This document shows positions 12,166 to 62,350 of a stretch of 64,000 nucleotides of DNA, piece by piece. The translations under genes were made by a program, and so were the position numbers. This stretch comes from an uncultured Clostridia bacterium (GTDB taxonomy: Bacteria > Bacillota > Clostridia > Christensenellales > UBA1242): contig CAKVNK010000001.1 of the NCBI GenBank assembly GCA_934777435.1, forward strand, positions 247,203-311,202, in the 5' to 3' direction. The notes beneath the pieces were generated by a model that did not search any database, was not told where the DNA came from, and saw only the letters and a list, made by a program, of their open reading frames with translations. Each line of letters opens with the position of its first letter. Position 1 is the first letter of the stretch.

Positions 12166-12813
12166 ATGTTTATGAAATTTACACACAATGAATTAACCCT
12201 TAGCGATGTATCCGCAACACTTTTTAAAGAATTTGAAAAAAGAACATCTGGTGATTTGCATTATAATTTTGATGGAGAATTAGCACAACCACTTGAAGTA
12301 ACAAAAGTATTTTTTGGTGCTGTTGGCTTAAAATTGTTCTTTGACAACAATTTAAAAAATGAAATTCCCGCTTGGCTTAAAGGTGATAAGGAATTAATCA
12401 ACGCATATTTTGAAGGTGCAAAAAAGATCTTCTTGAAAGATGCACTTAAAAAAGCAGAAGATGTTTTATACACTATCAACACTGAAGGCAAAGACAAAAC
12501 AACTGTAACTTTAGATTTCAGCAAATATAATTTTGATTACGCAACAATCTCTGTAATTCTCACTTATTTGATGACAAAGGGTTGGTATGTAAATTGGAAT
12601 GAACTTGACCACAGCTATCATGTTATTAATACTGACTGGGTGTGCAAATTTACTAAAGGCAAAGAAGTTAGTGCTGAAACATTGGTTGCAAGCACAATTT
12701 CAAGATTAGCAACAAGAGATTTCAAATTGGCTTATGTTGATATGTGGGAAGACCCAACAATCAATAGTTATGGCATTAAAAAACACTCTGATGACGACTC
12801 ACACTCAGTTTAA
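12166..12813 (+). CDS. Hypothetical protein (215 aa)
   Basis: AGGAGA RBS, its own promoter and a downstream terminator, and balanced composition. No family recognised. Confidence 0.7.
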   Translation: MFMKFTHNELTLSDVSATLFKEFEKRTSGDLHYNFDGELAQPLEVTKVFFGAVGLKLFFDNNLKNEIPAWLKGDKELINAYFEGAKKIFLKDALKKAEDVLYTINTEGKDKTTVTLDFSKYNFDYATISVILTYLMTKGWYVNWNELDHSYHVINTDWVCKFTKGKEVSAETLVASTISRLATRDFKLAYVDMWEDPTINSYGIKKHSDDDSHSV

Positions 12814-12927: not shown

Positions 12928-13491
12928 CTATGTTTCAACACGAGTGTAATTTTTTATTATATGGTCAGTTTGTTTTGCTTGTTTATCGGTTTCTTGCAAG
13001 GTCGATTTTGATTTGCTTTTAAACAAATTTTTCAAACCACCAAATTTAAAAATTGACATAACAGATTCTAACATTTTTGGGTTTTGCATCACACCACTAA
13101 CCAACTGTTGAAAATCAAAACCAGAACTTGCACCGTTACCATTTTCACCCGATGTGGCATTTGCAAAGTTTGATGAAGTTAACCCAGAAAGCATTTTTGT
13201 CAAATCAGTGTTTCCATTTTTTGATAAGAGCCCCATTAAAATTGGCAACATGTTTTTAAAATCAAAATTAAAAGAAAATGGTGTGCATGGTGATGGTTTT
13301 GGTTGCTTTGGTGGTTTAGGCTTTGGCACACAATCACAATGATGTTTTTTAAAATCATTATCTATATAAAAAGATGGCAAACAATCATAAGGTTCAGCAA
13401 ACACCACTTTTTTAATTTGTTTTTTTTCAAAACCTTGAATAAAAGCATTTGGGTCACAAAAAATTGCATTTCGGCTATCTTCAAAATCCAT
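12928..13491 (-). CDS. Hypothetical protein (187 aa) with a Cys/Pro/Lys-rich segment
   Basis: The ORF contains HHCDCVPKPKPPKQPKPSPC followed by a G/S/N-rich region. No RBS is evident and the function is unknown. Confidence 0.5.
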   Translation of the reverse strand: MDFEDSRNAIFCDPNAFIQGFEKKQIKKVVFAEPYDCLPSFYIDNDFKKHHCDCVPKPKPPKQPKPSPCTPFSFNFDFKNMLPILMGLLSKNGNTDLTKMLSGLTSSNFANATSGENGNGASSGFDFQQLVSGVMQNPKMLESVMSIFKFGGLKNLFKSKSKSTLQETDKQAKQTDHIIKNYTRVET

Positions 13492-33731: not shown

Positions 33732-34232
33732 CTATGCAACTGTTGATTCAACTACATTTTCTTCAACTTTCTTATCTTTTAAACACAAAGCAGCAATCAT
33801 AAACGCAAATGTTAAAATGTTTGCTGTAAAGATGCTTAAAACAAGTTGTGTAATAATAAAACCAGTTTTTGCCTTTTCTTGACTGGTTGCAACAAGGTTG
33901 AATACACCAATAATAAGTGAAGCAATAGCCATTGCAATGCTGTATACCCCAATAGTTACTAAAATCATTTTTGTAACTTTAATAAGGTCGTCAACTTCAC
34001 GGCTTTCAAGTCTAGCCCCTGTTGTTGGATTTTTATATGAAATTGAACCATCCGCATTGTTAATAACTTCAACGTCTTCAATTTTCATTTCAAACACTGC
34101 TTCAACAACCATATCACGGTCAACCATTGTTCTACCAGCAATGAAAGTTAAACCAAACATAGCAATGATTGCTGCCATAACAATAGCAATAATAGAACCG
34201 GCTTTTAAAAATCCAGATTTAGTTTTTGTCAT
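33732..34232 (-). CDS. Hypothetical membrane protein (166 aa, about 4 TM)
   Basis: AGGAGGAAGGGA RBS. Hydrophobic helices flank a soluble loop. Confidence 0.7.
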   Translation of the reverse strand: MTKTKSGFLKAGSIIAIVMAAIIAMFGLTFIAGRTMVDRDMVVEAVFEMKIEDVEVINNADGSISYKNPTTGARLESREVDDLIKVTKMILVTIGVYSIAMAIASLIIGVFNLVATSQEKAKTGFIITQLVLSIFTANILTFAFMIAALCLKDKKVEENVVESTVA

Positions 34233-37808: not shown

Positions 37809-40800
37809 TTATTCAACATCGCCAGATTTTGCTTCTGATTCTGCTTCTTCAGTTGTTGCTGTTGCTTCAACTTCTTCTACTTCTTCTTTAGCAACTTCTT
37901 TGTTTGCACCTTTTGTTGATTTTGCTTTAACTTGATTGTTGGCTTTTGTTTTGCCACCTTTGCCTTTACCTGTGAAGGCGAAGAACAAGATAACGCCAGC
38001 AAGAACAACTAATGACAATACGATAAGCACAACGCCAACTACTGTATCATTGCTCTTTTCAACATCAGATTCAGTTTTAACAGTAAACTTAATTTCTTTT
38101 GTTGCTGGGTTTGTGTTGCTGTCGGTTGCTTTGATCACCAATTTATATTCACCAGTTGCACTGATTGAATATGTTTTGGTGTTAGTACCTGTTGAACTTG
38201 TTGACATAACGCTGTCTCCATTGTAAAGTTCCACAGTTAAAGAATCCCAACTGATGTCTTTTAATTCACCATTTTTGTCCTTATCTTGTAAAACAAGGTT
38301 GGTGTTGTAAGTTTTAACATCTTTACCGTTTGTGATTGTGACCTCAAGTTTTCTACCACCATTTGTTGATGTTGAAGTTTTAACCAATTTGATTGTGTAT
38401 TCAATAGCGGTTTTGCCATCGTATACAATTTCTTTAGCCAAATCATCTTCATGGTCGATTGTGATTACTGGTGGAACATTGTCACCCACTTTGATTGTAA
38501 ATGACTTTGTGATTGTGCTGTAAGCAGTTATTGCAGTATATTCAACTTTATAGTCACCTGTCAATGTTTCATTTGTTGTAAATTGCCATACAGTTGTGCC
38601 ATTAACAATGTTCTTTTTTACTGTTTGAGTGTCACCTTTGAAAGTAACTTTCAATTCAACTTTTGCTTTAACATCACCTTGAGATGCACTTAAATCTGGA
38701 AGTGTTACAACGCTACCCAAAGGTGCGTATGAATAATCACTTTCGTTTAATGTTTCGTTCCATTTAAGTTCTGGACGAGTTACAGTGATTGTAAATATTT
38801 GAGGTTCTGCTGTGTATGTTACACCAGCTGACTCATAACTTGCTGTAAATGTGATTTTATATTCACCTTGCTCCTTGAAGATGAAACTTGTTACATCATC
38901 AGCGGATTGCCAATCTTTTCCACCATCTTCAACTGTGTAGTCGATTGTTGCTGATTCTGTTAAGTTTTGTGACAAATCATTTGACCACAAAACTGCATCA
39001 AAGTTAACACGCATACCTGTTTCGCCAGTGATTGTGCTTGCACTTGAAGATTTAATATCGTCACCAGTTGCTGACACTTTCAAAATAGGGTCGCTTGCTA
39101 AAGTTGATTCAAATGTGAAGTACATATAGGTTGTGTTACCAGCATCATCTGTGGCTGTGTAAATAACGTGATATGTGCCTACTTTATCTGCTTTGATTGA
39201 GCCACCATAAATATATGATAAGCCTGAAATATTGTTTTTAAAGTTTTTCCCTGTAGGAGATTGATAATCTAAACCTATAATATCGTTAACTGGGCTGTCA
39301 ACATAGTATAAAACGCTCATACTCAAAGATTTATCGTCATCTTCAAAACTTACGTCTGGTAAACGAACAGTTGTGCCTTGTTTAACTGTAAGTGCAGTTA
39401 AATCTACATCACCCAAATCGTGTGCGTTTACAACGTGTGCTGTAGGTGCTGCAACATCGGTCATATCTTTCAAGTTGAGTTTTTTAGTAGCAAGTGCGAT
39501 ATTGCTGTCGTCATCAATAGACATAGCAACAATGTGTGCTTCTCTAAGATAACTTGCTTCATAACCTTTTAATTCAACATTATAGTTATTTTTATTCTTT
39601 TGTTCAGCATAAGCAAAACCATTGTATCTATCTTTCATATAGTTAACGAAAGCGTCAGTTTCAATTAAGTTTTTGCTACCAAAGTAACTGCCTTCTGGCA
39701 ATGCTTCTTTTGCTGCTCTGTAAGCATTTTCAACATCTTGTGCCAAAGTTGTTGCAGTAGATTTTGCTGTGTAGTAATAGAACACTGCAGTTTTAAGGCG
39801 TTTATCAACATTAGTTGTTGATTCGCCACGTTTTGTTTCATTTGCATTGATGTTAACTGTGAATTTACCATCGCTTGCAACTGAATAATTATCTTTAATG
39901 TTGTTAATTTCAACTGTGTGTTCTACAGATGTAGTTGGGGTTCTCAAATCAGTTGACAAAATTTCAAAGGTGTACATTGTTGTGTTTGAAACATACAAGT
40001 AACCTGTTTGTTTTGTGATGTCTTTTGCATAAACTTGGTAACCCAATGTATATTCACCAGCCATTTCTGATTGGTTTTCTGTGTTAAATTTGAATTTAAC
40101 TGCTTTGTTTGGTTTGCCAATGTTTGCATCTCCTGACACATTCATTTGGCTTGAATATGCTTCATCTGAAGAAATATTATATGCTTCTTTATCTTTTAAC
40201 ATAATGTTATCAAGATAATAGATTGTGTTTGTACGTGAACTTTGAATATAACGAACAAAGATAAAATCTTTATAAGATGTTACGTTATCTTTAGCATAGA
40301 TTGCTGGGAAGTAAAGTTCATTATAACCAAGTTGTGATTTGAATTCTGATGCAACAGTTGTGTCAATTTTATCTTCATCAACTGGCAATTTTGTTTCAGC
40401 ATCAACTTCATAGTTATAAGCCATGAATACTTCTGGGTTTGTGTTATCTTTAACGCCGTCAATAGTAACTTTGATTGTTTTTGTGTTGCCGTAAGCATCT
40501 TCAATGGTATATTCAACATACCAGTCACCTAACATATCTGTTGTGTATGAAGCCAAATTAAATGTTGTTTTGGTCATATCAAATTTAAAAGTGTTGTTTG
40601 ATAAAGTTGTTGAAAGGTTGCCCTTGCTGATAACGATTGATTTAACATTGTGTTCAATGTTATCTTTTGTTTTGCTGTTAACAACAACATCTGGCAATTT
40701 AATATCTTTTTGACCCAATTCAACGCTTGGCATTGTAGGGATATTGATTGTTAAATCGCTACTTGTAGGTGCTACAAAGTCTTTTTTAACTTCAACTGTG

Positions 40801-41618
40801 AAAGACTTTTTAGGTGGATTGTTCCCATAAGCATATGTGTATTCAATGGTATATTTACCTTCTTTTGTTGGATACAAATAATACTTATTTGTTTCAGCAT
40901 CTTTTTTAACGATATTGCTTGTTGATAAGTCAAGTTCTGTGCCGTAAGCGTCAAAAACTTTAAGGGTTACACCTGTGCTTGAAACATATGCACCTGTATC
41001 CTTATTTTTAACGTTTGCTGTTGGCAATTCGATTTTATCAGCATCACTTGTTGACAATTTAACTGTTTCTGGTAAAAGAGTTTTTAAACCCGCCTTTGCT
41101 GAACCTTCACGTGCTGCAAAGTCAAGTTCATAACTAACATTTTCAACTGTTACAGAATAGGTGTTAGAATATAAAAGTTCGCCACCTTCTTCCATAATGT
41201 ACAAAATGTCGTATTTGCCGTTATTGAGTGTTTTGATTTCAAGAAATTCATCACTATCAACATTAATTTTTGCAAAATAATCAGCATCTCTTTCGTTTGT
41301 TTCTTGACCAGCTTCTGCCCCAACTTTATAGTCGTGTGAAGTGAAACTTGGGTCAACCACGCGGATTGTATATTTGGCAGTATCTTGCCATGAGTTGCCA
41401 GATTTAAGAAGTGGCACACGCAATGATTGGTTGCCATTAGCATCAACAAATGTTGCACGTGGCATCTTAACTGCTTTGATGGCCATATTGTAGTTAGTTT
41501 TGGCCTTGTTTAAAGCCGCATAAGTACGAACATTTGGTGCAAATGTGAACAATAAACTTGCAAACGCAAATGCCATAAAGCATAATATAACCTTAAAATA
41601 CTTCTTAATTGATTTCAT
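37809..41618 (-). CDS. Large surface protein (1269 aa) with a signal peptide, tandem Ig-like beta domains, and a C-terminal TM anchor plus charged tail
   Basis: Signal-like MKSIKKYFKVILCFMAFAFASLL..TYA. Recurrent domain-end motifs (DAYGNTKTIKVTI, TATDDAGNTTYMYFTF, KATDSNTNPATKEIKFTV). C-terminal VVGVVLIVLSLVVLAGVILFFAF followed by a K/E-rich tail. AGGAGA RBS. Confidence 0.85.
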   Translation of the reverse strand: MKSIKKYFKVILCFMAFAFASLLFTFAPNVRTYAALNKAKTNYNMAIKAVKMPRATFVDANGNQSLRVPLLKSGNSWQDTAKYTIRVVDPSFTSHDYKVGAEAGQETNERDADYFAKINVDSDEFLEIKTLNNGKYDILYIMEEGGELLYSNTYSVTVENVSYELDFAAREGSAKAGLKTLLPETVKLSTSDADKIELPTANVKNKDTGAYVSSTGVTLKVFDAYGTELDLSTSNIVKKDAETNKYYLYPTKEGKYTIEYTYAYGNNPPKKSFTVEVKKDFVAPTSSDLTINIPTMPSVELGQKDIKLPDVVVNSKTKDNIEHNVKSIVISKGNLSTTLSNNTFKFDMTKTTFNLASYTTDMLGDWYVEYTIEDAYGNTKTIKVTIDGVKDNTNPEVFMAYNYEVDAETKLPVDEDKIDTTVASEFKSQLGYNELYFPAIYAKDNVTSYKDFIFVRYIQSSRTNTIYYLDNIMLKDKEAYNISSDEAYSSQMNVSGDANIGKPNKAVKFKFNTENQSEMAGEYTLGYQVYAKDITKQTGYLYVSNTTMYTFEILSTDLRTPTTSVEHTVEINNIKDNYSVASDGKFTVNINANETKRGESTTNVDKRLKTAVFYYYTAKSTATTLAQDVENAYRAAKEALPEGSYFGSKNLIETDAFVNYMKDRYNGFAYAEQKNKNNYNVELKGYEASYLREAHIVAMSIDDDSNIALATKKLNLKDMTDVAAPTAHVVNAHDLGDVDLTALTVKQGTTVRLPDVSFEDDDKSLSMSVLYYVDSPVNDIIGLDYQSPTGKNFKNNISGLSYIYGGSIKADKVGTYHVIYTATDDAGNTTYMYFTFESTLASDPILKVSATGDDIKSSSASTITGETGMRVNFDAVLWSNDLSQNLTESATIDYTVEDGGKDWQSADDVTSFIFKEQGEYKITFTASYESAGVTYTAEPQIFTITVTRPELKWNETLNESDYSYAPLGSVVTLPDLSASQGDVKAKVELKVTFKGDTQTVKKNIVNGTTVWQFTTNETLTGDYKVEYTAITAYSTITKSFTIKVGDNVPPVITIDHEDDLAKEIVYDGKTAIEYTIKLVKTSTSTNGGRKLEVTITNGKDVKTYNTNLVLQDKDKNGELKDISWDSLTVELYNGDSVMSTSSTGTNTKTYSISATGEYKLVIKATDSNTNPATKEIKFTVKTESDVEKSNDTVVGVVLIVLSLVVLAGVILFFAFTGKGKGGKTKANNQVKAKSTKGANKEVAKEEVEEVEATATTEEAESEAKSGDVE

Positions 41619-41896: not shown

Positions 41897-42427
41897 TTAA
41901 AGCCTTGAAAGTTGGCTTGTTGCATATTCTTTTGTTACAAAGTTAAATTCATCACTGCTTGCCAAAAAATATTGTTTTTCGCGGTGCTTGTTAAGCATTG
42001 ATAAAAAATCACTATCAAGCATTTTATATCTTTCAATAAGAACATCATTTAAGCGTTTAAAATCAATAGTTTTTGCATCTGCAAGTGCTTTTGCTGTGGT
42101 TAACGCCCACTCGTTTGGTTCTTCGCCATTTGGATTATCAAAATCACAAAGAATATTCATATTTTCAGGCGAAACAACCAACTTGCAAATAACTTTTATC
42201 TTTTCTAATGTTGTGCGTTGTAATTCTTTAACTGCGTTTGCGTCCAAATAATAAAATTCATACAACCTATCAGTTTCACCAACAATAGATTTTGCATGAA
42301 GTGGACGTTTAAGCACCACTCTATCACCATATACGCCACGACCACGTTTATACTCAACAATTTCATAAAAATTGTTAATCAAAAAATCAAGTTGTGGCCA
42401 ATTTTGTTCGTTAACTTTTGTTGCCAT
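41897..42427 (-). CDS. Hypothetical protein (176 aa), 9 nt downstream of the HicB-like gene
   Basis: Same strand, with a 9-nt gap after the HicB-like stop. Balanced composition. No family recognised. Confidence 0.65.
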   Translation of the reverse strand: MATKVNEQNWPQLDFLINNFYEIVEYKRGRGVYGDRVVLKRPLHAKSIVGETDRLYEFYYLDANAVKELQRTTLEKIKVICKLVVSPENMNILCDFDNPNGEEPNEWALTTAKALADAKTIDFKRLNDVLIERYKMLDSDFLSMLNKHREKQYFLASSDEFNFVTKEYATSQLSRL

Positions 42428-51957: not shown

Positions 51958-53499
51958 TTACAATTGTGCTATTGTTGCACAATTTACATTAGAAAAGTTA
52001 AAACCAGTGTTTACGTAATAATTTTTAGTTAAATATGGATTTACAGAATCGTACCATGTCGATCCGCTACAATTAAAAATTGGATTAGAATACGATTTGC
52101 TTCCTGCCGATGAATTGTTTTTAATGCTAGAAGAAGAATCAACGACGCTTAAACATTTTTTAATATTTACACAGCCCTCACTATACTTGGCCACAACACC
52201 ATATTCTGCAGATCTGCCAAGTATTCCCCCTATATTTGCACCGAAAATTTGATCGCTTTTACGATAAGTTTGATCCACAACAACCATTTTTGATATAGAA
52301 ACACAATCACTGATTGTAACTTTTGGACTAACAGAATCATACAGTCTATAACCACCACCAATTAATGCCACATAAATCTCACAAACGGCTTCACCAACAA
52401 TACCCCCAGCGTTTGTGTAACACCCACCATTGCCTGTTATATTTATGGTGGAATGTGTTTCAACACAAGAGATGTTAACATCAGTTTGATTTTTAGATGC
52501 TGACAATAACGCATAAACACACCCTATCAAACCGCCAGCAGATGTATTATTTCCATATTCAAAACGTATTGAACCTGAACCATTTGATGTTATCTCGTTT
52601 GTATTTGTTACACTAATTGAAGCATTTGTTAATTTTATATTTGACACCGTACATACACCAGAAAGTGAACCGGCCAAACAGCCAATATCTTTCATTCCAT
52701 CTATTGCCGGATATGGTAGTGAAGTTGTGCTTGTTATTGACACTCCGTCCAACCACAGATTTTTTATATTTCCATCTACAACATTACCAAACAAACCCAA
52801 TGGTTTGTATAAATTTCTATATCCAGATATTGTGTTGCCTTGAAGAATTGCAACTGATGACACAAGAATTTCAGTTAATTTTAGATTCTTTATCACATGA
52901 TTATTGCCGTCAAATGTGCCTGAAAAAACCTTCTTCACAATCGGATTGGTATTTGTATGCATTGCCACAACATATGATCCTATCGGATCCCACGCAACCG
53001 ATTGCAAATCAATATCACTTGTTAATTTTACCGTTGAACCCGAATAAGAATCCCCTTTGTTAACATTATCTCTAAATGTTTCCAAATCTGATTTACTATT
53101 AATAGTCACAGTGCCGGCAGTTGCAGCATACACTACATCGTTAACTTTTGTCAAACTTTTACCTATTGCTGAAAAATAGCATGTTTGTCCGCCAACAGAA
53201 ATCTCAAACATAACCTTATTTGAAGTTGTTTTTACCAAATTGCCTAAACTATAATTATTGTTTGGAAATACAATTTTCAGTTTTTTATTTAATTTTTCAG
53301 CGGTGTTATCGTTTAGCGTTACATTATCAATCAACCCAACTTTAAGCACCTCACCTGATTCCATTTTTACAAATTGCACACAATTATATTTAGGAAACAC
53401 AAACAAGCCAAATCCCACTATGGCTAAGAACAACAAACAAAAAACCAGTAAGAACATGCTTACCAGTTTTTTATATTTTGCCCCATTTTGTGTTATCAT
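51958..53499 (-). CDS. Membrane-anchored surface protein with GLUG-type (beta-helix) repeats
   Basis: Recurrent GL.G motifs (LGLFGNV, IGCLAGSL, AGGLIGCV, AGGIVGEA, IGGILGRS). N-terminal TM anchor. The start is moved to ATG 53499 (MITQNGAKYKK..) from the ORF-track start at 53559, on the basis of a consensus leaderless promoter. Confidence 0.75.
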   Translation of the reverse strand: MITQNGAKYKKLVSMFLLVFCLLFLAIVGFGLFVFPKYNCVQFVKMESGEVLKVGLIDNVTLNDNTAEKLNKKLKIVFPNNNYSLGNLVKTTSNKVMFEISVGGQTCYFSAIGKSLTKVNDVVYAATAGTVTINSKSDLETFRDNVNKGDSYSGSTVKLTSDIDLQSVAWDPIGSYVVAMHTNTNPIVKKVFSGTFDGNNHVIKNLKLTEILVSSVAILQGNTISGYRNLYKPLGLFGNVVDGNIKNLWLDGVSITSTTSLPYPAIDGMKDIGCLAGSLSGVCTVSNIKLTNASISVTNTNEITSNGSGSIRFEYGNNTSAGGLIGCVYALLSASKNQTDVNISCVETHSTINITGNGGCYTNAGGIVGEAVCEIYVALIGGGYRLYDSVSPKVTISDCVSISKMVVVDQTYRKSDQIFGANIGGILGRSAEYGVVAKYSEGCVNIKKCLSVVDSSSSIKNNSSAGSKSYSNPIFNCSGSTWYDSVNPYLTKNYYVNTGFNFSNVNCATIAQL

Positions 53500-53505
53500 T
53501 AATAT

Positions 53506-53535
53506 ATTATAACTTTTCAACTTTTGATTTGTCAA
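53506..53535 (-). promoter_or_regulatory. Consensus promoter TTGACA-18-TATAAT placed 6 nt upstream of the ATG (leaderless geometry)
   Basis: Minus strand: TTGACA (53535-53530), 18 nt, TATAAT (53511-53506), ATATTA, then ATG (53499). Confidence 0.6.
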
Positions 53536-53586
53536 ACAATACAAAATCCTATGTTGCAATCTTTTTTGTTGTTTATTGTTATATTA

Positions 53587-54282
53587 TCAATCCAATCGGC
53601 TATCTTCCCTTAAATGTTTAGCATAATCTTGCCAAGCCTTAGACTTTTGTTGTTTAATGTTGACCACCTTACCATTAACTTCTTTAATGAAAGGGTTAAC
53701 ATAATTTGTGTTATCGTCTGGCTCCCAATAATCGTGTTTACGTTGCAAATAACCAGATAAAATTTTTTCGGTAAAAAGCCTAAAATGGTTTAAATCGGTT
53801 GAAACACAAAGCCCATATGGGTGATATAAGCCTGAACATAAATGGGTGTGACCAAAAAAGTTACACATATTCTTTTTGCCGTCTTTAATTTGATGAACCA
53901 AATTTACCTTTCTACCACAAGTTTCAACAATTAAACTGCGGTGCACTTCTTTGATACCTTTGCTTAAACAATATTGTTTAAATTTTTCAAAACTGTTGTC
54001 AAAAAAGTATTTAACCACCCTATCTTCATTATTGCCCATAATAAGCACTATGCCGGCTTTGATTTCTTTAACAAGTTCTAACCCATTTTGCCACTCATAT
54101 GTGTTTGGTCCGTCACAGTCCAGCAAATCGCCAACCACATAAATGGTGTCGCCCTTATGTGCGGTTTTGTTAAAATTGTTAACAATAAATTTGTCATACT
54201 GCTTTATGTTTTTAAACGGGCGATTATCCGTTTGCATTGTCAGTGTATCGCTAAAATGTATATCCGCAGTAAAGAATTTCAT
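53587..54282 (-). CDS. Calcineurin-like metallophosphoesterase
   Basis: FTADIHFSD, VVGDLLD, GNNEDR and GHTH motifs in canonical order. AGGGG RBS. Confidence 0.85.
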   Translation of the reverse strand: MKFFTADIHFSDTLTMQTDNRPFKNIKQYDKFIVNNFNKTAHKGDTIYVVGDLLDCDGPNTYEWQNGLELVKEIKAGIVLIMGNNEDRVVKYFFDNSFEKFKQYCLSKGIKEVHRSLIVETCGRKVNLVHQIKDGKKNMCNFFGHTHLCSGLYHPYGLCVSTDLNHFRLFTEKILSGYLQRKHDYWEPDDNTNYVNPFIKEVNGKVVNIKQQKSKAWQDYAKHLREDSRLD

Positions 54283-54370: not shown

Positions 54371-55450
54371 TTAATAACTGAAAGATTGCAACTTATCCAC
54401 AATCATTTGTTTAAGTTGAACAATGTTTTTGCCTGTTTTTGCACCGATGTAGCATGTATCATATGGATATGGTTTAAGTGATTGAATTTCAGCATTTGTT
54501 AATTTATCTGCTTTGTTGTAAACCAAAATTACACGATGTGGGTCAATTTCAAGACGTTTAAATTCACGTTCTACAACTGCAATTTGGTCATAACGGTGTG
54601 GGTCGCTTGCATCAACAACCAGCAAAAGCACGTTAGCGTCCAATGTTTCTTCCAATGTTGCAGAGAAAGCATACATAAGCTCATGTGGAAGATTGCTTAC
54701 AAAACCAACAGTATCAATCAACACATATTCTGTGCCGTTATCCCAAACTTTTTTGGTAAGCACATCAAGAGTTGCAAAAAGCCTATCGTCCGCATATGTG
54801 CCAGCCTTTGCAATGGCATTCATCAATGTTGATTTACCAGCGTTTGTATACCCAACCAACGCAACACTTTTCATACGAGATAAACGTTGTTTACGTTGTG
54901 TTTGACGATTTTTTTGTATATCCTTAATTTCTTTTTCAAGGCGTAAAATGTCTTCTTGAATTTTGCGTTTGCTTAAATCTTTTAAACTTTCACCTGCACC
55001 ACGCCCTGCCATACGTTCTTGGTTAAGTTGCAAGCAACTTAATCTTGGCAAACTATATTTAAGTTGTGCCAATTCGACTTGCAATTTACCTTCGCCTGAT
55101 TTTGCACGACCAGCAAAAATATCCAAAATAAGCATTGTGCGGTCGATTGTTTTAGCATCAAAAATTTCACTCAAATTACGCAGTTGACTGCCTGAAAGTG
55201 GACAGTCCAAAATAATCACAGTAGCACCTAATTCTTTTGCCTCATCGCGAATCTCTTCTGCCTTACCAATACCAAAATATGTGCGTGCGTTCAATTCTTT
55301 TGGTTGAAAAATGTTGCATTTAACCACTTCGTACAATGCACTTTCAGTTAAAAGTTCCAACTCTTTTGCCCTATACCCGGTGTTGCTCATATCAACATAT
55401 GGGCAAACAAGATAGGCCTTTTCTTTTATAACTTCATTATTAACAAACAT
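54371..55450 (-). CDS. hflX: GTPase HflX (short form)
   Basis: HflX N-domain followed by G1 GYTNAGKST, ATLD, G3 DTVGF and G4 NKADK. AAGGAGA RBS. Confidence 0.9.
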   Translation of the reverse strand: MFVNNEVIKEKAYLVCPYVDMSNTGYRAKELELLTESALYEVVKCNIFQPKELNARTYFGIGKAEEIRDEAKELGATVIILDCPLSGSQLRNLSEIFDAKTIDRTMLILDIFAGRAKSGEGKLQVELAQLKYSLPRLSCLQLNQERMAGRGAGESLKDLSKRKIQEDILRLEKEIKDIQKNRQTQRKQRLSRMKSVALVGYTNAGKSTLMNAIAKAGTYADDRLFATLDVLTKKVWDNGTEYVLIDTVGFVSNLPHELMYAFSATLEETLDANVLLLVVDASDPHRYDQIAVVEREFKRLEIDPHRVILVYNKADKLTNAEIQSLKPYPYDTCYIGAKTGKNIVQLKQMIVDKLQSFSY

Positions 55451-55647
55451 AAATTTCTCCTTTAAACATAATATTTAGGCATTTTGCGTTGTTCCGCCAC
55501 CGTTTATACTCAAATATGTTTTCAACTGCTTAAACCAATCAAAATCAAAGTGGAAATTTATTCACTAATGGTTTTCGCTTTTACGTTTAAACATTAAAAC
55601 ACAACAAAATATCAAATTAAAACCTGCCTAAAATTTTAACTGTGAGT

Positions 55648-55665
55648 TTAAAGATTTATGCTCAT
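55648..55665 (-). promoter_or_regulatory. Candidate leader mini-ORF (MSINL-stop) in the hflX 5' leader
   Basis: Minus strand: GAGGTG, 7 nt, ATG AGC ATA AAT CTT TAA. It lies immediately after the predicted TSS. Confidence 0.3.
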
Positions 55666-55686
55666 TTTTTTTCACCTCTGAAATTT

Positions 55687-55715
55687 ATTTTACAATTCAG
55701 CAAAGTTATTGTCAA
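55687..55715 (-). promoter_or_regulatory. hflX promoter TTGACA-17-TAAAAT
   Basis: Minus strand: TTGACA (55715-55710), 17 nt, TAAAAT (55692-55687). This implies a 5' leader of about 230 nt. Confidence 0.6.
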
Positions 55716-55723
55716 TAAATTTA

Positions 55724-55750
55724 AACAAAAAAAGCACCGTTTTTGGTGCT
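55724..55750 (-). terminator. Terminator of the four-gene helical-protein array
   Basis: Minus strand: AGCACC-aaaaac-GGTGCT followed by a T-run (A-run at 55724-55733 on plus). Confidence 0.7.
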
Positions 55751-55852
55751 TCTTCGCATGTTTAAAATAAATTATTTTAGATAATTTTGGCCTTAAAATT
55801 TGCAATTTAATTTAAATCGGCCTTAATTAAACAAGTTTGTTTTTTGTTAGAT

Positions 55853-56320
55853 TTATTCATCTATTTGATTTTCTGTTTCGTTTAAGTCAGCACTCTTTAA
55901 TTCTTTAATGCTACCAGCAAGTGACTTATAAATTGTTGCCAATTTTTCTGTTTTAGAAGCAATCTTTTTAAGTTCAAGTTGTTGTATTTTTAACACACAT
56001 TTGCGAATCAAAAAATATTTACTCTTTTTGATTTCAGTGCCACGTCTTTTAATTCTGCCTTCGATTGTGTTTGCAAAGGCTTTGACTGAAACACCTAAAT
56101 CTTTAACCGCTTGCAATAAGTCGTCTTCTTCAGCAAAGTATGAATTTTTAACTTCATCTAAACTGATACGAACATCAATAACCATATATCTCAATGATTT
56201 ATTTTTAAGGTCGTTTCTTTCCATATCGGCAAGTACGGGTTCCATTGCAGATACATGTTTTGTAACAATGTGTGTTAGAGTGTTTTGTTCTTGCACAAAA
56301 CTGTCATTTTCGGTTTTCAT
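55853..56320 (-). CDS. Hypothetical helical protein P4 (155 aa)
   Basis: AAGGAGA RBS and its own consensus promoter. Composition is typical of alpha-helical proteins, rich in K, E and L. Confidence 0.7.
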   Translation of the reverse strand: MKTENDSFVQEQNTLTHIVTKHVSAMEPVLADMERNDLKNKSLRYMVIDVRISLDEVKNSYFAEEDDLLQAVKDLGVSVKAFANTIEGRIKRRGTEIKKSKYFLIRKCVLKIQQLELKKIASKTEKLATIYKSLAGSIKELKSADLNETENQIDE

Positions 56321-56341
56321 AATTCTCCTTTAACCGAATAT

Positions 56342-56369
56342 ATTATAGCACATATAACTTTTTTGTCAA
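56342..56369 (-). promoter_or_regulatory. Internal promoter TTGACA-16-TATAAT with an extended -10 (TGc) for P4
   Basis: Minus strand: TTGACA (56369-56364), 16 nt, TGcTATAAT (to 56342). Confidence 0.65.
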
Positions 56370-56414
56370 CACCCCACCTATCCTGTGTTGCTTTAAACCG
56401 CCATAAAAATAGGA

Positions 56415-56849
56415 TTATTCAACAACAATGCCTTTTGTGTATGGGGCAACAAATTCTTTCATATCTAGGCTTAAATCATAGGCTTCACGCAAGTCGAGAT
56501 GTATTTGTTCTTCCTTTCTCAATTTGATTTTTGAAATCAACTTTGTAAATGGATTTTCAGTTGATTTTATTCTCATATTCAAGGTGTTTACAATCCTTCT
56601 TTGATTGTTTAAAAGCCTTGCACACATGCTGTTGATATCAATGGCATATCCATGTATTTCAATGATTGAACCTGTCTTTTCAATATAACGCATGTAGTGT
56701 TGTATTTCATTAACAAGGTCGCAATCTAAAATTCTATTGTGGTCTGAAAAATATTTGTCATATTTAATCATTAAAACTGCAAGTGTATGTAACTTTTTTT
56801 CAATGTCACTCATCACATATATGTAGTTTTCATATTCACGTTCTGTCAT
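56415..56849 (-). CDS. Hypothetical helical protein P3 (144 aa), paralog of P2
   Basis: GGAGA RBS. It shares I-x-H-x(1,2)-R-Y, F-x-K-[IL]-I-[ST]-K-I-x-L, RE, and the C-terminal [IF]V-x-P-Y-[ST] with P2. Confidence 0.7.
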   Translation of the reverse strand: MTEREYENYIYVMSDIEKKLHTLAVLMIKYDKYFSDHNRILDCDLVNEIQHYMRYIEKTGSIIEIHGYAIDINSMCARLLNNQRRIVNTLNMRIKSTENPFTKLISKIKLRKEEQIHLDLREAYDLSLDMKEFVAPYTKGIVVE

Positions 56850-56875
56850 ATTTTATCTCCATTAAAAGGTTTTTC

Positions 56876-57379
56876 TTAATTATTTGGGGTTGGATTGCCA
56901 CCTTCGTCCATTTGGCAATCTTCTTGTATCGTTTCTTGTTTTGTTTCTGCGCTATAAGGTCTAACAATATCCCTTATTTCATCACATAAAAGGCTGATTG
57001 ATTCAATTTCTTCCCTCATGGATCTTTCTGCAACATATTTATTAAACAAAAGTATTTTTGTGATTATTTTTATAAAACTTTGTTTTGAATATTCTTTTAT
57101 AATTTCTTCAACTTGATTCATTTGCAATTCGTATAATTTAATAATCAAATTGTTTAAAACTTCTGGATACAAGCAAAATTTATTTATATCATTGGCATAT
57201 CTAAGATGATTTATATTTTCCATTATTTCTTCAATGATTTTGCAGGCTTCTGTTCTTTGCTTTTTTTCGTATTTATCTTTAAGCAAATAAATCCTTACTT
57301 CCATAGGATTCAATCTTTTTGAAATGTCTTTTCTTATATATTTAAACATTTCATACACTTTAATTCCACAATGTTTCAT
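56876..57379 (-). CDS. Hypothetical helical protein P2 (167 aa)
   Basis: GGAGGGG RBS, with motifs shared with P3. It has an acidic/Pro tail (QEDCQMDEGGNPTPNN). Confidence 0.7.
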   Translation of the reverse strand: MKHCGIKVYEMFKYIRKDISKRLNPMEVRIYLLKDKYEKKQRTEACKIIEEIMENINHLRYANDINKFCLYPEVLNNLIIKLYELQMNQVEEIIKEYSKQSFIKIITKILLFNKYVAERSMREEIESISLLCDEIRDIVRPYSAETKQETIQEDCQMDEGGNPTPNN

Positions 57380-57393
57380 ATAAGCCCCTCCAT

Positions 57394-57801
57394 TTAATCA
57401 ATTTTTAACACATTTACTTCCACATTATCTTCTTTACCAAAAATTTGTTTTATTATTTTTTTAATCCTTGGCAATGTATATGTAAGCCTAAGCAATCTTG
57501 AATATTCAAATTTGGTTAATATCCTTTCGTCACCAGTGTCTATATTTGAAAATTGAGATTTTATTTTAGCAAGTTTTTCAGTTTCTTGTGCGTAAAATTC
57601 ATCTAATTTTTCTTCTAACTTAATCAAATTATTATACCTAAATCCAGCATCGTCTGATATAGAAATATCAACAGCAAGCTGTTTCATGTCTGCAACTTGC
57701 TTAATTTCTTCATCAACACAACGTTTCTTAATACTGCCTAATGATCCCCTAAGCAATAAATAAAGTTGTTTAATATCTATATCTTTTTTAGTGTTTTCCA
57801 T
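57394..57801 (-). CDS. Hypothetical helical protein P1 (135 aa)
   Basis: First gene after a consensus promoter. GGGG-type RBS. It contains the F-R-Y motif at a position similar to the R-Y motif in P2-P4. Confidence 0.65.
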   Translation of the reverse strand: MENTKKDIDIKQLYLLLRGSLGSIKKRCVDEEIKQVADMKQLAVDISISDDAGFRYNNLIKLEEKLDEFYAQETEKLAKIKSQFSNIDTGDERILTKFEYSRLLRLTYTLPRIKKIIKQIFGKEDNVEVNVLKID

Positions 57802-57832
57802 AATACTACCCCGCTAAACTTTGTTTGGTGGT

Positions 57833-57860
57833 ATTATACCATCACACCAAATTTTGTCAA
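57833..57860 (-). promoter_or_regulatory. Promoter TTGACA-16-TATAAT with an extended -10 (TGg) for P1-P3
   Basis: Minus strand: TTGACA (57860-57855), 16 nt, TGgTATAAT (to 57833). Confidence 0.65.
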
Positions 57861-57893
57861 TACATAAATTACAGTTTTTTTAATGCTAACCTG

Positions 57894-57922
57894 TTGCAAA
57901 ATTTGACACGATTTGTTAATAT
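57894..57922 (+). promoter_or_regulatory. Promoter TTGCAA-17-TAATAT placed 6 nt upstream of the ATG (leaderless geometry)
   Basis: TTGCAA at 57894-57899, TAATAT at 57917-57922, actcgt, then ATG 57929. No SD. Confidence 0.5.
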
Positions 57923-57928
57923 ACTCGT

Positions 57929-58732
57929 ATGCGAATTTGTAATTTAGCAAGCGGTAGCAGTGGAAATTGCACATATATTGAAGGTGGGTCATCCAAAATT
58001 TTAATTGATAATGGCAAGCCTTTTTCATATATTTTTGACACCCTTAATCAGTTGCAAATCGCCCCAGATAGCATTGATGCTATACTTGTAACACATGAGC
58101 ATAGCGACCATATCAAAGGCATAGAAAAATTTGTTCGCACCTATAATACAAAGATTTACGCACACGTTCAAATTAAAGAAGTTTTGTTAAACCAGATTCA
58201 CGTTGACACTAATAATTTTGTGTTTTATGATAGCGACTTTGATATTGGCGACTTACATATTCAACCTTTCCCACTGCCACATGATAGTAAATTTTGTGTT
58301 GGCTACCGCATAAATCACGAAGATGCAATCGTCACCGTTTGCACTGACTTGGGCGAGTTTTCAGAAGAAACTTTTGAAGTTGTTAAAAACAGTGCAGTTG
58401 TATATTTAGAAGCAAATTATGACCCAGAAATGCTTATGTCCTATCCAGGTTATCCACCATTTTTAAAACGTAGGATAAGTAGTGGACACGGTCATTTAAG
58501 CAACTTGCAATGTGCAAAAGCCATTGAAAAATTGGTTAAAACTGGCACTCGCTTAATTGTTTTAAGTCATATCAGTGAGCACAGCAACACCGTTAACCTT
58601 GCAGTTGGCACAATAGCAAATTATTTAGAAAATAAAAATATAATTCCTAACCGTGATGTTCGCCTAGACATTGCCCATCACGAACAACGTGGAACTATAT
58701 TTAGAATTACACCAACCAGCCAAAAACAATAG
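57929..58732 (+). CDS. MBL-fold metallo-hydrolase (YycJ/WalJ-like)
   Basis: MRICNLASGSSGNCTYIE.. and the THEHSDH zinc motif, 267 aa. Confidence 0.88.
   Translation: MRICNLASGSSGNCTYIEGGSSKILIDNGKPFSYIFDTLNQLQIAPDSIDAILVTHEHSDHIKGIEKFVRTYNTKIYAHVQIKEVLLNQIHVDTNNFVFYDSDFDIGDLHIQPFPLPHDSKFCVGYRINHEDAIVTVCTDLGEFSEETFEVVKNSAVVYLEANYDPEMLMSYPGYPPFLKRRISSGHGHLSNLQCAKAIEKLVKTGTRLIVLSHISEHSNTVNLAVGTIANYLENKNIIPNRDVRLDIAHHEQRGTIFRITPTSQKQ
58676..58726 (+). repeat. Direct repeat copy 1 (authentic 3' end of the MBL-fold gene)
   Basis: 47 of 51 nt are identical to 58882-58932. Confidence 0.85.
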
Positions 58733-58863: not shown

Positions 58864-58938
58864 GAGCGTTTTGACGCTGCACATCACGAACAACGCGGGA
58901 CCATATTCAGAATTACACCAACCAGCCAAAAATTATAA
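58864..58938 (+). pseudogene. Displaced duplicate of the MBL-fold gene 3' terminus (direct repeat copy 2)
   Basis: It encodes SERFDAAHHEQRGTIFRITPTSQKL-stop, compared with the authentic DVRLDIAHHEQRGTIFRITPTSQKQ-stop. It is followed directly by a strong terminator. Confidence 0.7.
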
Positions 58939-59002: not shown

Positions 59003-60790
59003 TTACGCACCTAATACAACTTCATCATATACAGAAGTTTCATTATTGAGTTTGTAATATTTCATTGTGTTTGCGATTGTATCATAAATAGCAATATCGC
59101 AATGTGTTGTATCGTTGTATTCAATCAAAACGCAAGTTTCTGATGCTTCAAAACCTGTTTTATCAGCATTCAAAGTGTTTGTTGACATAAACACTTCAAC
59201 ATTATCTTTATATGATTGGCTAAAACTATCTTTACGAACCTTGATAATAGCACACGTTTTCTCCGCTGTTACAGATAAGAAAGTTGATGATTGATAACCT
59301 GAACCAAATGCTTCTGGATTGAAGAAGAAAATAAGTTCTGCTGGAATTGTTGAATCAATATCAATCAAGCCCAAACTTTCAAGATGAGCACGCTTGCCTT
59401 CAACGGTATCAGTTGGATTCTTTGGGTGACCTTTATAGTAGAATACATAATTTTCTTCACCATAATAAGCCTTTATTGCTTTAACATAGTTATCAAAATA
59501 ATCTGCTTGTTCAGTTGCTGTCCAAGTACCTAAAATAACCATGACTTGTTTATGATCTGCTTCTGCCTTTTCAAACATAGTGTCGCTGAATTTATAAAGG
59601 GCTTTTAAATCGGCCTTTTTAAACCATCTATCAGCAACCATTGCTTCAATTTCCTCGTCAGTTTTGCTTGCGTTTGCTGTATTAACACGTGGGTCAATTT
59701 TAACAAGTAAAGATTTTAAATCTTTAACTTTAATTGCTGTACCTTCTGTTGGTTGAACAAAGTTTGAATATACAGTGCCACCAGCAGTCAATGTTTGTGT
59801 GCCAAGTGTACCATTAGCACGTGTTAACCACCAATCAACATTTGATTCTTCTTTTGCCATAACAAAAGCGTATTCACGTAATGTTCCTGCGTCAATTGTA
59901 AGACCTCTTGTTGATTCAGTTATTTTGCCCTTTTTGGCAACTTCTTTTTTAAGTTTAAAGTAATTTGCTTTCATTGTTTCATATTTTGTTGCATAATTTT
60001 CATTATTTAAATTTTTGTTAAAATAATTGAAAGATGCTGTACCATCTGAAAGCAAAGTAACTTTATAATTTTCTGCCGGAATTCCATTTGCAACAGTTGC
60101 ATCTAGCCAACCATACGCATAATAGTCATTGTAATAAAAGTTAAATTTTGAATTTCTATTTATTTCATACAATTCTTTAACCCAAGCTGATGTGCCTTTA
60201 TACATTTCACGTTGAGTGCTGTTTAAGAACGCGTCTGGTGTGGCAATAGGCATTTCATAAACATTTTTAGGAAGCTTACTCCAATCCCAAGCGCCACTAC
60301 GTTTAAACCACACAAATGTTGGTATTGTGCCTTTATTTGTAATTTCGTCCAATGATAATGTAAACAATGTTACAGGCATTGTCGCTGTGATAGGTGCAAT
60401 ATTGTATTCGTCAGCTGAAAGGTTAACTTTCATTGTTTTTGTTGTGCTGTAAATACCTCTTTTAAATTGCGCTTTAACGGTCATTTTACCATAAAAACCA
60501 TCAATTTCAGTTTTGTTTGCAGCCATTTGGCTTACCTTGTTAATGTATTTCACATTAACCAATTTATTGTTGTGATAAACTGATACTTTAATACTGTCAA
60601 GTTGTTTTGATGCGTTCCAATTAATGTTAATTGCTTGTGATTGGTCAATTTGTGCTGCGTTTGCTTTAATATCAACTTTAAGTGCACAAAAATAAACAAG
60701 CAAGAACACTAAAAGGCCTAAAATTAGTATACCCCCACCCAGTGTCAAAGGAAGCCATACTTTTTTAGGAACTTTTTTTGTTTTTTCCAT
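59003..60790 (-). CDS. Membrane-anchored GT80-like glycosyltransferase (putative sialyltransferase) with an N-terminal Ig-like domain
   Basis: N-terminal TM helix (WLPLTLGGGILILGLLVFLLVYF). Motifs parallel the Pasteurella PM0188/PmST1 sialyltransferase as I recall it: TLLSDGTASF vs LYDDGSMEY, ILGTWT vs FTGTTTW, YYKGHPKN vs YFKGHPRG, IPAELIFF..GSGYQSSTFLS vs SFEVLMM..GGVASSLYFS. Confidence 0.55.
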   Translation of the reverse strand: MEKTKKVPKKVWLPLTLGGGILILGLLVFLLVYFCALKVDIKANAAQIDQSQAININWNASKQLDSIKVSVYHNNKLVNVKYINKVSQMAANKTEIDGFYGKMTVKAQFKRGIYSTTKTMKVNLSADEYNIAPITATMPVTLFTLSLDEITNKGTIPTFVWFKRSGAWDWSKLPKNVYEMPIATPDAFLNSTQREMYKGTSAWVKELYEINRNSKFNFYYNDYYAYGWLDATVANGIPAENYKVTLLSDGTASFNYFNKNLNNENYATKYETMKANYFKLKKEVAKKGKITESTRGLTIDAGTLREYAFVMAKEESNVDWWLTRANGTLGTQTLTAGGTVYSNFVQPTEGTAIKVKDLKSLLVKIDPRVNTANASKTDEEIEAMVADRWFKKADLKALYKFSDTMFEKAEADHKQVMVILGTWTATEQADYFDNYVKAIKAYYGEENYVFYYKGHPKNPTDTVEGKRAHLESLGLIDIDSTIPAELIFFFNPEAFGSGYQSSTFLSVTAEKTCAIIKVRKDSFSQSYKDNVEVFMSTNTLNADKTGFEASETCVLIEYNDTTHCDIAIYDTIANTMKYYKLNNETSVYDEVVLGA

Positions 60791-62117: not shown

Positions 62118-62194
62118 AGAGATGTAGCTCAGCAGGTTAGAGCACCACCCTGATAAGGTGGGGGTCGGTGGTTCGAGTCCACTCATCTCTACCA
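62118..62194 (+). tRNA. tRNA-Ile (anticodon GAU), CCA encoded
   Basis: Manual cloverleaf: acceptor AGAGATG/CATCTCT, D-arm TAGCTCAGCAGGTTAGAGCA, anticodon stem CCACC/GGTGG with loop CTGATAA, T-arm GGTGG-TTCGAGT-CCACT, and ACCA. Confidence 0.9.
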
Positions 62195-62199
62195 GAAGC

Positions 62200-62228
62200 A
62201 AGTGTTTGACATCGTCAAGCACTTTTTT
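62200..62228 (+). terminator. tRNA operon terminator
   Basis: AAGTGTTTGAC-atc-GTCAAGCACTT (11 bp, one G-U pair) followed by T6. Confidence 0.8.
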
Positions 62229-62350
62229 CTTTTATGAAACAAGTGCTAAAAATTTATTGTTAAAAACAAGATTTTAGCAAAGCAAAATATGTCATCTTTC
62301 AAAATCACAAACTTCGTAAAAGACAAAATATTATTAAAAAATAATAAAAA

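Follow-up and report, generated by a model that had tools for sequence, protein, structure and literature searches.

Predicted helical orphan proteins behind consensus promoters in a variable slot between core genes of a gut Christensenellales bacterium

Introduction

Variable gene slots, or 'genomic islets', between conserved core genes are well known in bacterial pangenomes. Arrays of small helical immunity or antitoxin proteins are also known, among them the immunity arrays of polymorphic toxins and the epsilon antitoxin of the zeta toxins. The locus described here resembles both in part. It is an array of four small genes, P1 to P4, in a 64,000-nucleotide stretch of DNA from an uncultured Clostridia bacterium (contig CAKVNK010000001.1, positions 247,203 to 311,202; the whole stretch is called the window), and it occupies the spacer between hflX and the divergent gene for a metallo-β-lactamase-fold (MBL-fold) hydrolase. 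The sequence comparisons below lead us to propose, with a probability of about 0.6, that P1 to P4 are dispensable, highly expressed, non-enzymatic helical proteins carried in a hotspot for the exchange of gene cassettes.

The window is chromosomal, since it carries rpoB, rpoC, dnaE, clpC, uvrC and greA, and its host is a member of 'Candidatus Onthoplasma', a gut genus of the Christensenellales. Onthoplasma belongs to the family UBA1242, for which reduced genomes of 0.67–1.6 Mb and a probably partner-dependent lifestyle have been described (PMC12306168). A solved clostridial protein of possibly similar kind, Cthe_2751 of Clostridium thermocellum (PDB 3UT4/3UT7), has been described as a 'non-Pfam singleton' all-alpha protein (PMC3282739).

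The gene array and its expression signals

The four genes follow one another on the minus strand: P1 (57394-57801, 135 amino acids (aa)), P2 (56876-57379, 167 aa), P3 (56415-56849, 144 aa) and P4 (55853-56320, 155 aa). The gaps between them are 14, 26 and 94 nt, so that coding sequence makes up 93% of the span, and Shine–Dalgarno (SD) sites (GGGG, GGAGG, GGAG and AGGAG) sit 6–10 nt 5' of the four starts. Even a single open reading frame (ORF) of at least 135 codons appeared in just 7 of 1000 shuffles of the array region, and chance cannot account for four consecutive ones on the same strand.

Two promoters serve these genes. Promoter 1 (TTGACA-16-TGgTATAAT, 57833..57860, minus strand) lies ahead of P1, and promoter 2 (TTGACA-16-TGcTATAAT, 56342..56369, minus strand) lies between P3 and P4; both match the consensus at 12 of 12 positions and add the TG of an extended -10 element. 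The pattern TTGACA-N13-TGN-TATAAT is found at these two places only in the 64 kb, against a chance expectation of 0. An intrinsic terminator on the minus strand (55755..55728), with an 11-bp stem followed by a run of T, closes the array and is the sole terminator detected within 55300-58300. Since none lies between P3 and P4, the likely transcription units are P1-P2-P3(-P4) from promoter 1 and P4 from promoter 2. As far as such signals can be read, this makes the array a genuine expression cassette of two units, with P1-P2-P3 driven by promoter 1, P4 by promoter 2, and a terminator at its end. The original prediction, made from the window alone, had described just this arrangement, with four minus-strand genes of these lengths each preceded by an SD site, two near-perfect promoters, a clean terminator and a promoter region shared with the divergent hydrolase gene. 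The gene coordinates, SD sites, promoters and terminator agree with it throughout, and the shared promoter region is borne out by the local sequence and by the alignment of relatives.

A variable slot between conserved genes

A search with HflX as probe gave 47 related loci, here numbered with an L, which come mostly from 'Candidatus Onthoplasma' or from metagenome-assembled genomes (MAGs) of uncultured Clostridia or Christensenella of the gut. The divergent MBL/hflX pair is adjacent in about 40 species, across which the spacer, measured from start to start, ranges from 66 to 2479 bp. In the window, the segment 55693..57832 has no counterpart in close relatives with conserved flanks. Nucleotide homology to L006-L010 and L037 is lost at about 57833, the end of the -10 element of promoter 1, and returns near the terminator and the promoter of hflX, at about 55729-55719. 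L007, L010 and L053 likewise remain homologous to the window from the MBL gene to 57833/57817 and no further. The outward TTGACA promoter on the MBL side is conserved in species that carry different cargo, and it forms the conserved border of the slot on that side.

A further comparison is with L053, a metagenomic relative found by way of the hflX leader. Its flanks are 88–90% identical to those of the window in nucleotide sequence, up to 55692 and again from 57817, and nothing can be aligned between them. Instead, L053 has a 135-aa homologue of the first slot gene of L009 (z=33) together with a 148-aa protein of a family seen in L007 and L010. A different cassette between flanks so alike indicates that the content of the slot has been replaced and recombined, and has not merely diverged. 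Between L004 and L009, nucleotide identity is 60–75% within the cassette and jumps to 85–100% at the hflX promoter. By these alignments the MBL–hflX spacer is a variable slot flanked by core genes, of the kind taken as a recombination hotspot. A gene cassette of the integron type was considered and rejected, there being no boundary repeats and no recombinase domain in the scanned neighbours.

What the slot holds differs widely among species. It is empty in L011-L013, L039, L041 and L045, and holds AT-rich sequence without an ORF in L023-L026, L033-L036 and L050. In sister species such ORF-less spacers are 270–650 bp long with 15–25% GC, and the idea that they are pseudogene remnants was dropped, as neither traces of cargo genes nor any proto-ORF similar to cargo was found in them. 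Elsewhere the slot has one gene of 146–161 aa (L007, L008, L010), two genes (L006), three genes (L009, L037), a gene for a 111-aa protein (L014, L020) or a 210-aa protein (L018, L021), one for a 313-aa or 431-aa protein (L015, L030), or one for an AAA_33 kinase (L017, 830-1339; L042, 9446-9955). This kinase is a 169-aa P-loop protein (AAA_33, E=3e-18; Zeta_toxin more weakly, E=6.7e-6), and it evolves at an ordinary rate, with 89% identity between the two loci against 95–97% for the flanks. Apart from the kinase, 20 other slot proteins had no Pfam match, ten were without a PADLOC match, and those compared with PHROGs had none there.

The perfect promoters follow the slot. Among 51 related loci, the perfect extended -10 consensus occurs 13 times, 11 of these within the slot. 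L009 repeats the layout of the window, with a perfect promoter, two genes, a second perfect promoter, one gene, a terminator and the hflX promoter. At the position of promoter 2, before the last slot gene, a promoter just as perfect is present in both L009 and L004, while L037 has three near-perfect promoters, one for each gene. In the loci compared, perfect promoters are thus apparently a property of the slot itself.

Relatives of P2 and P3

P2 and P3 are paralogues, as the original prediction had proposed. Their alignment score of 102 compares with 37.7 ± 6.7 for shuffled sequences (z=9.6; 0 of 500 shuffles reach it), and BLASTP gives E=3e-5 with 23% identity across 138 aa. Of the motifs that had been pointed out in support of this, two, F-x-K-[IL]-I-[ST]-K and V-x-P-Y at the C-terminus, persist in more distant members of the family, whereas MAFFT does not align I-x-H-x-R-Y between P2 and P3 and the 53% identical P2 orthologue has no His at all. 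The remaining five pairs among P1 to P4 have no significant similarity in shuffle tests. These include P1 and P4, for which a likeness had been seen in a hydrophobic-R-Y motif; the pair gives z=2.1, with 20 of 500 shuffles scoring as well, and an hhalign E of 0.11, neither of which is significant.

The P2/P3 family is confined to this slot, where it occurs in the window, L001, L003, L002, L009 (150 aa), L004 (148 aa) and, weakly, L037 (151 aa). In L002, orthologues of P2 and P3 (53% and 55% identical) lie side by side. The more distant relatives are connected through P3 by shuffle test, with z=16 for the L009 protein, z=10 for that of L004 (P0006) and z=5.3 for that of L037; in L004 the gene sits just upstream of hflX, and in L009 it is flanked by different, unrelated partners. 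Each known copy of the cassette from this species (L001, L003) has all four genes, P1 to P4. The expectation that homologues would be clustered in other genomes is borne out for P2 and P3 alone, whose relatives lie in the same slot beside other small helical ORFs (L002, L004, L009).

Outside the slot very little was found. In 5.8 billion proteins, P2 has four clusters (P0001-P0004; 98, 96, 89 and 53% identity), P3 has one, and P4 has one whose copies are 95–100% identical. For P1, in the collections searched (the homology search of the 5.8 billion proteins being left out), only copies of 92–100% identity are present. A P2/P3 profile run against 1.84 billion cluster representatives recovered three proteins, one of them new (P0006, E=2e-4). 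The exact P1 to P4 sequences belong to clusters of 2–5 members, none of which has a name. On these searches P1 to P4 are restricted, it appears, to one or a few species of Onthoplasma.

Nor do the slot families connect readily with one another. In a profile–profile comparison of 15 of them, the sole link is a weak one between P2/P3 and the 151-aa protein of L037 (E=7e-4, probability 26%); P1 is not linked to P4, and neither is linked to its positional counterpart in L009 or L004. P1 is also unrelated to the first-gene family of L009 and L053 (z<1.6). A homology of P4 to the last slot gene of L004 was considered (z=2.9), but is not demonstrated, since P4 against the corresponding gene of L009 gives z=-0.2. 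The similarity in promoter, ribosome-binding site and N-terminus (MKTEN.. against MAKTKNN..) is suggestive only.

Searches against described families were negative, in keeping with the original prediction, which had recognised no known family in the proteins and had taken assignment to a characterised family as a refutation: curated families, solved structures, phage, plasmid and defence-model collections gave no significant match. In Pfam-A and NCBIfam the best matches of P1 to P4 have E=0.006-0.15, far under the curated cut-offs, and the eight P2/P3 family members, scanned singly against curated families, point to no recurring one. PADLOC-DB 2.0 gave for P1 to P4 a sole match, to Cmr3 over 48 residues of P4 (E=0.014, not significant), and all PHROGs matches have E>=0.007 and are not significant. 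The PDB gave nothing, either by single-sequence search of each of P1 to P4 or with the P2/P3 family profile; matches of P3 to SAKe were rejected, as this is a repetitive designed protein and no stretch qualified. Translated searches of 50,697 phage records with P1 to P4, and of 72,556 plasmid records with P1, P2 and P4, had no match. Searches of GTDB genomes, JGI metagenomes and IMG/VR with the P2/P3 profile gave no relatives, and neither did P1 or P4 in IMG/VR.

Composition and predicted structure

All four proteins appear to be soluble. The maximal 19-residue Kyte–Doolittle mean is below 1.0 in each, so that the absence of transmembrane segments noted in the original prediction is upheld; no signal peptide was found in any of them, and their isoelectric points are near neutral (6.2–8.5). 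K, E, I, L and N together make up 45–51% of the residues, compared with 34–40% in neighbouring genes. G+C content at the third codon position (GC3) resembles that of the host, whereas both GC1 and GC2 are low. This argues against a recent foreign origin and fits proteins shaped by AT mutational bias.

No enzyme motif was detected in the sequences. Besides Met1, the sole residue invariant in the eight members of the P2/P3 family is one Lys, and no conserved His, Cys or acidic motif is found across them. The R-x(4-6)-H motif of HEPN/DUF86-type RNases is present in P3 (RKEEQIH, residue 111) and is missing from P1, P2, P4 and every other family member, so assignment to HEPN fails. P1 to P4 have no CxxC; P1, P2 and P4 have no ExxH, and no ExxH is conserved, which speaks against metal-binding bundles of the ferritin, DinB or hemerythrin kind. 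Because none of the four has a tryptophan, none can have a W-x-G motif, and WXG100/type VII substrates were ruled out on this ground; the lengths of 135–167 aa also differ from the ~100-aa hairpin of those proteins.

The original description of the array as all-alpha is best supported for P2. AlphaFold2 models P2 as an up-down four-helix bundle (predicted local distance difference test (pLDDT) 82.1; predicted template modelling score (pTM) 0.73), with helices at model residues 3-38, 42-59, 64-97 and 104-147, the model lacking Met1 and being numbered one residue below the protein. The acidic tail, from about residue 146 to 167, is disordered in the model. A Foldseek search of PDB and BFVD with this model gave generic or designed bundles alone, at E>=0.0035, none reaching E<=0.001, with template modelling scores (TM-scores) of 0.4–0.58 and sequence identities of 6–15%. 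For P1 and P3, helical structure is suggested by an amphipathic 100-degree periodicity, which exceeds that of shuffled sequences in all four proteins (z=1.8–3.5), and for P3 also by its homology to P2; the prediction for P4 is of low confidence. As modelled, P2 is an up-down four-helix bundle, in which class P3 is included by homology. On this basis P2 and P3 are predicted to form a new four-helix-bundle family of tandem duplicates, found in the MBL/hflX slot only.

Divergence and selection

The cargo evolves fast. Between the window and L003, the ratio of nonsynonymous to synonymous substitution rates (dN/dS) is 0.49 for P1, 0.35 for P2, 0.11 for P3 and 0.16 for P4, compared with 0.07 for the MBL hydrolase in the same pair and 0.05 for HflX against L005. 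Seven other species pairs give 0.16–0.52 for cargo and 0.03–0.07 for flanks, with comparable and often saturated dS. The cargo proteins diverge about 5–10 times faster than the flanking proteins, and gene-wide positive selection on them is not seen in dN/dS. Weak constraint is thus enough to account for the gaps in identity between flanks and cargo (for example, 94–96% against 33–48%). The import of old divergent alleles, which had been considered as the cause of the fast divergence, was dropped, being unnecessary when, in most species pairs, dS is no less saturated in the flanks than in the cargo.

Flanking genes and other features of the region

The gene for the MBL-fold hydrolase (57929..58732, plus strand; Pfam Lactamase_B_2, E=3.7e-21) forms the conserved left flank and is divergent from the array. 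It appears to be leaderless: in the region 57887-57931 (plus strand), TTGCAA-17-TAATAT ends 6 nt before the ATG, with no SD site, and all aligned species share this layout. A copy of the final 65 nt of the gene (58667-58731) lies 206 nt downstream (58873-58937) with 86% identity, and tblastn detects the same extra C-terminal fragment in L006, L008, L009, L010, L014, L018 (twice), L022, L033 and L042. The repeat may be a scar of insertions, which would make this end of the gene a second variable border.

The conserved right flank is hflX (54371..55450, minus strand; Pfam GTP-bdg_N, GTP-bdg_M and MMR_HSR1), and its promoter and leader (55451..55715, minus strand) form the conserved right border of the slot. 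The promoter is TTGACA-17-TAAAAT (55715..55687). The conserved leader of ~230 nt holds an SD site and a five-codon mini-ORF, ATGAGCATAAATCTTTAA (MSINL, 55665..55648), which is kept in L003, L006-L008, L010 and L037 and reads MSIKL in L009 and MSIEL in L004. In the minimum free energy fold, the 3' end of the mini-ORF, CUUUAAAC, pairs with the region of the hflX SD site, GUUUAAAGGAG, and a conserved UUUUAGGCA pairs with UGCCUAAA, although the z-score of the fold is just -1.5. Control by ribosome stalling has been reported for the antibiotic-inducible HflXr (PMC6310831), and by analogy the leader here looks like a stalling control of that type. Just upstream of hflX, several more distant Onthoplasma species have a conserved ORF of 54-79 aa (..KKKKYQSVVLCKDLPKHMQETRTIRVPNY..) without a Pfam match (L042, 9044-9238; L018, 9695-9859; L035, 855-1019; L027, 9625-9864). 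In L005 (CAKVCF010000121.1, 2808 bp), from the closest GTDB species, with HflX 96% identical, the contig breaks off within the leader, 86 nt upstream of hflX, so the slot is an assembly break point in that MAG.

ORFs with no or marginal Pfam match are common in the window. They include 59003-60790, 51958-53559, 53587-54282 and 37809-41618, as well as 12166-12813, 12928-13491, 33732-34232 and 41897-42427, among others, and the set contains proteins of 1269, 595 and 533 aa. Orphan status is therefore not remarkable by itself here. The genes for 595-, 533- and 231-aa proteins, which adjoin the slot, vary in their presence among relatives. A match to Rfam HPnc0260, a Helicobacter antisense RNA, at 62156-62298 on the minus strand (score 60.0, threshold 59) overlaps an opposite-strand tRNA gene at 62118-62191 and is probably an artefact of antisense tRNA similarity.

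Discussion

If P1 to P4 are what we propose, they would be made at a high level from their strong promoters and would act by binding or scaffolding rather than by catalysis, as homo- or hetero-oligomeric helical bundles, with P2 and P3 the likeliest binding pair. They would provide dispensable accessory functions and would not be parts of a fixed four-component machine. Their cassettes would be exchanged by homologous recombination between the conserved flanks of the slot.

Several points weigh against this proposal. The AlphaFold2 model of P4 is all helices but unreliable (pLDDT 60.5, pTM 0.36). Homologous recombination as the route of exchange is read only from the breaks in identity; boundary inverted or direct repeats and att-like sites do not rise above background at the slot, and no recombinase domain is present in the scanned neighbours (the 231-, 533- and 595-aa ORFs and rubrerythrin). 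Average dN/dS values are compatible with positive selection at a few sites. Between L009 and L004, cassette dS (0.7–1.3) is higher than hflX dS (0.24, a small sample of 75 available codons), and the cassette may there be older than its flanks. Finally, useless genes are normally lost from genomes under ~1 Mb, and that a genome of less than ~1 Mb keeps all four genes together with two perfect promoters suggests a function more specific than that of generic binding proteins.

A rival reading places the array in biological conflict. The cassettes would then encode immunity-, antitoxin-, anti-phage- or anti-defence-type binders, and the slot a 'conflict islet' diversified by frequency-dependent selection. 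Replacement of cassettes between close relatives at sharp borders, the mixing and matching of slot families in L009 and L053, very strong promoters specific to the slot, fast-evolving and dispensable cargo, and the AAA_33 kinase of L017 and L042 with its weaker Zeta_toxin match (E=6.7e-6) all fit this idea. We nevertheless regard it as unlikely, because P1 to P4 and 20 other slot proteins find no match in PADLOC, Pfam or PHROGs, the cassette lacks a toxin or nuclease partner as well as mobile-element genes, relatives were found neither in phages or plasmids nor in viral contigs, and dN/dS is well below 1. Another alternative is that the genes are young, possibly de novo: an AT-rich spacer behind a very strong promoter would repeatedly yield ORFs for amphipathic helices, with P1 and P4 as newborns at the species level and of marginal function. 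In 5.8 billion proteins nothing less than 95% identical is related to P4, and P1 has no relative below 92% in the sets searched; the ORF-less spacers of sister species occupy the same place; the K+E+I+L+N content, the low GC1 and GC2 with host-like GC3, and the weak constraint point the same way, as does the fact that the best structural and profile matches are designed 'idealised' helical bundles. This explanation has to contend, however, with clear purifying selection on P3 (0.11) and P4 (0.16), a duplicated P2/P3 family common to at least four diverged lineages, the lack of cargo remnants or proto-ORF similarity in the ORF-less spacers, the maintenance of perfect promoters and SD sites, and a streamlined genome, and we consider it rather improbable.

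The original prediction favoured an undescribed multi-component system, such as a hetero-oligomeric helical-bundle complex, and in its strict form this would make all four proteins obligate partners. The short gaps of 14 and 26 nt that join P1, P2 and P3 in one operon, the position of P4 straight after them, the P2/P3 pair side by side in two diverged lineages, and the presence of all four genes in every copy of this species' cassette are what such a complex would predict. Its components do not, however, keep company across genomes. In L009 and L004 the P2/P3 family occurs without P1 or P4 and among neighbours of unrelated families; in L053 the family of the first L009 gene is paired with a different one; and most species of the genus, including those with empty slots, lack all four. 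Since partner families differ in L009, L004 and L053, co-occurrence gives an obligate four-part complex no support, and it seems to us doubtful, more so than an origin as young genes. Export of the proteins by a route independent of a signal peptide (for example, type VII-like), as effectors or surface factors acting on a partner or host cell, would suit a host that is probably partner-dependent (PMC12306168) and proteins that are small, helical, fast-evolving and predicted to be abundantly expressed. But P1 to P4 have no Trp, hence no W-x-G, and no signal peptide or transmembrane segment, the 10 kb to each side contain no secretion genes, and nothing positive was found, which makes export highly improbable.

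A broader idea, to which we attach little probability, concerns the spacer itself. It might be a dedicated 'expression slot', in which the genus keeps a conserved maximal-strength promoter and a conserved downstream border as a landing pad while cassettes for lineage-specific helical bundles are swapped, duplicated and possibly born de novo. The spacer would then serve these reduced-genome and probably partner-dependent bacteria as a small locus of diversity in their dealings with phages or partner cells, and the P2/P3 four-helix-bundle family would be the first recognisable protein family of that slot. If P1 to P4 are functional, they add up to one new family (P2/P3) and two species-level orphans, kept and predicted to be very strongly expressed in a genome of less than ~1 Mb; if their function is marginal, they are an ordinary case of taxonomically restricted genes, which are common in this lineage. 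The slot is in itself a natural and compact case in which cassettes turn over behind a consensus promoter that stays fixed, and may be of use for studying the origin, divergence and exchange of orphan genes in uncultured reduced-genome gut bacteria.

How far do the described systems resemble this one? At the level of the single protein, the P2 model is of the same topology class as generic and designed up-down four-helix bundles (single-chain ROP 1yo7, Maquette-3 6z0c, LemA 2etd, and the S23/Avd-like 2rld and 2gsc), but the likeness is one of fold class only, and the HEPN Rx4-6H motif, the sole family signature examined, is not conserved. Cthe_2751 is, like P2, a small clostridial orphan helical protein, and phmmer aligns P2 residues 28-139 with its residues 5-119; however, the similarity is not significant (E=0.59-0.65), and Cthe_2751 does not appear among the 50 best matches that Foldseek gives for the P2 model.

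At the level of the array, P1 to P4 are similar to immunity and antitoxin arrays in consisting of small helical cytoplasmic proteins with tandem paralogues, in their predicted strong expression, in their rapid divergence and strain-specific content, and in that a zeta-like kinase is found in the same slot in L017 and L042. They differ from such arrays in having neither a nearby toxin gene nor a match to an immunity or antitoxin family, and in being under purifying selection on average. The closest resemblance at the level of the locus is to the variable slots between core genes of bacterial pangenomes, with which the MBL/hflX spacer shares conserved flanks, differing content, sharp borders and cargo of lower GC than the flanks. 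Unlike those slots, it is very small (0–2.4 kb) and has no integrase, tRNA, repeats or mobile-element genes, its cargo consists almost entirely of small orphan proteins in place of recognisable defence or metabolic genes, and the spacer supplies its own conserved, perfect promoter.

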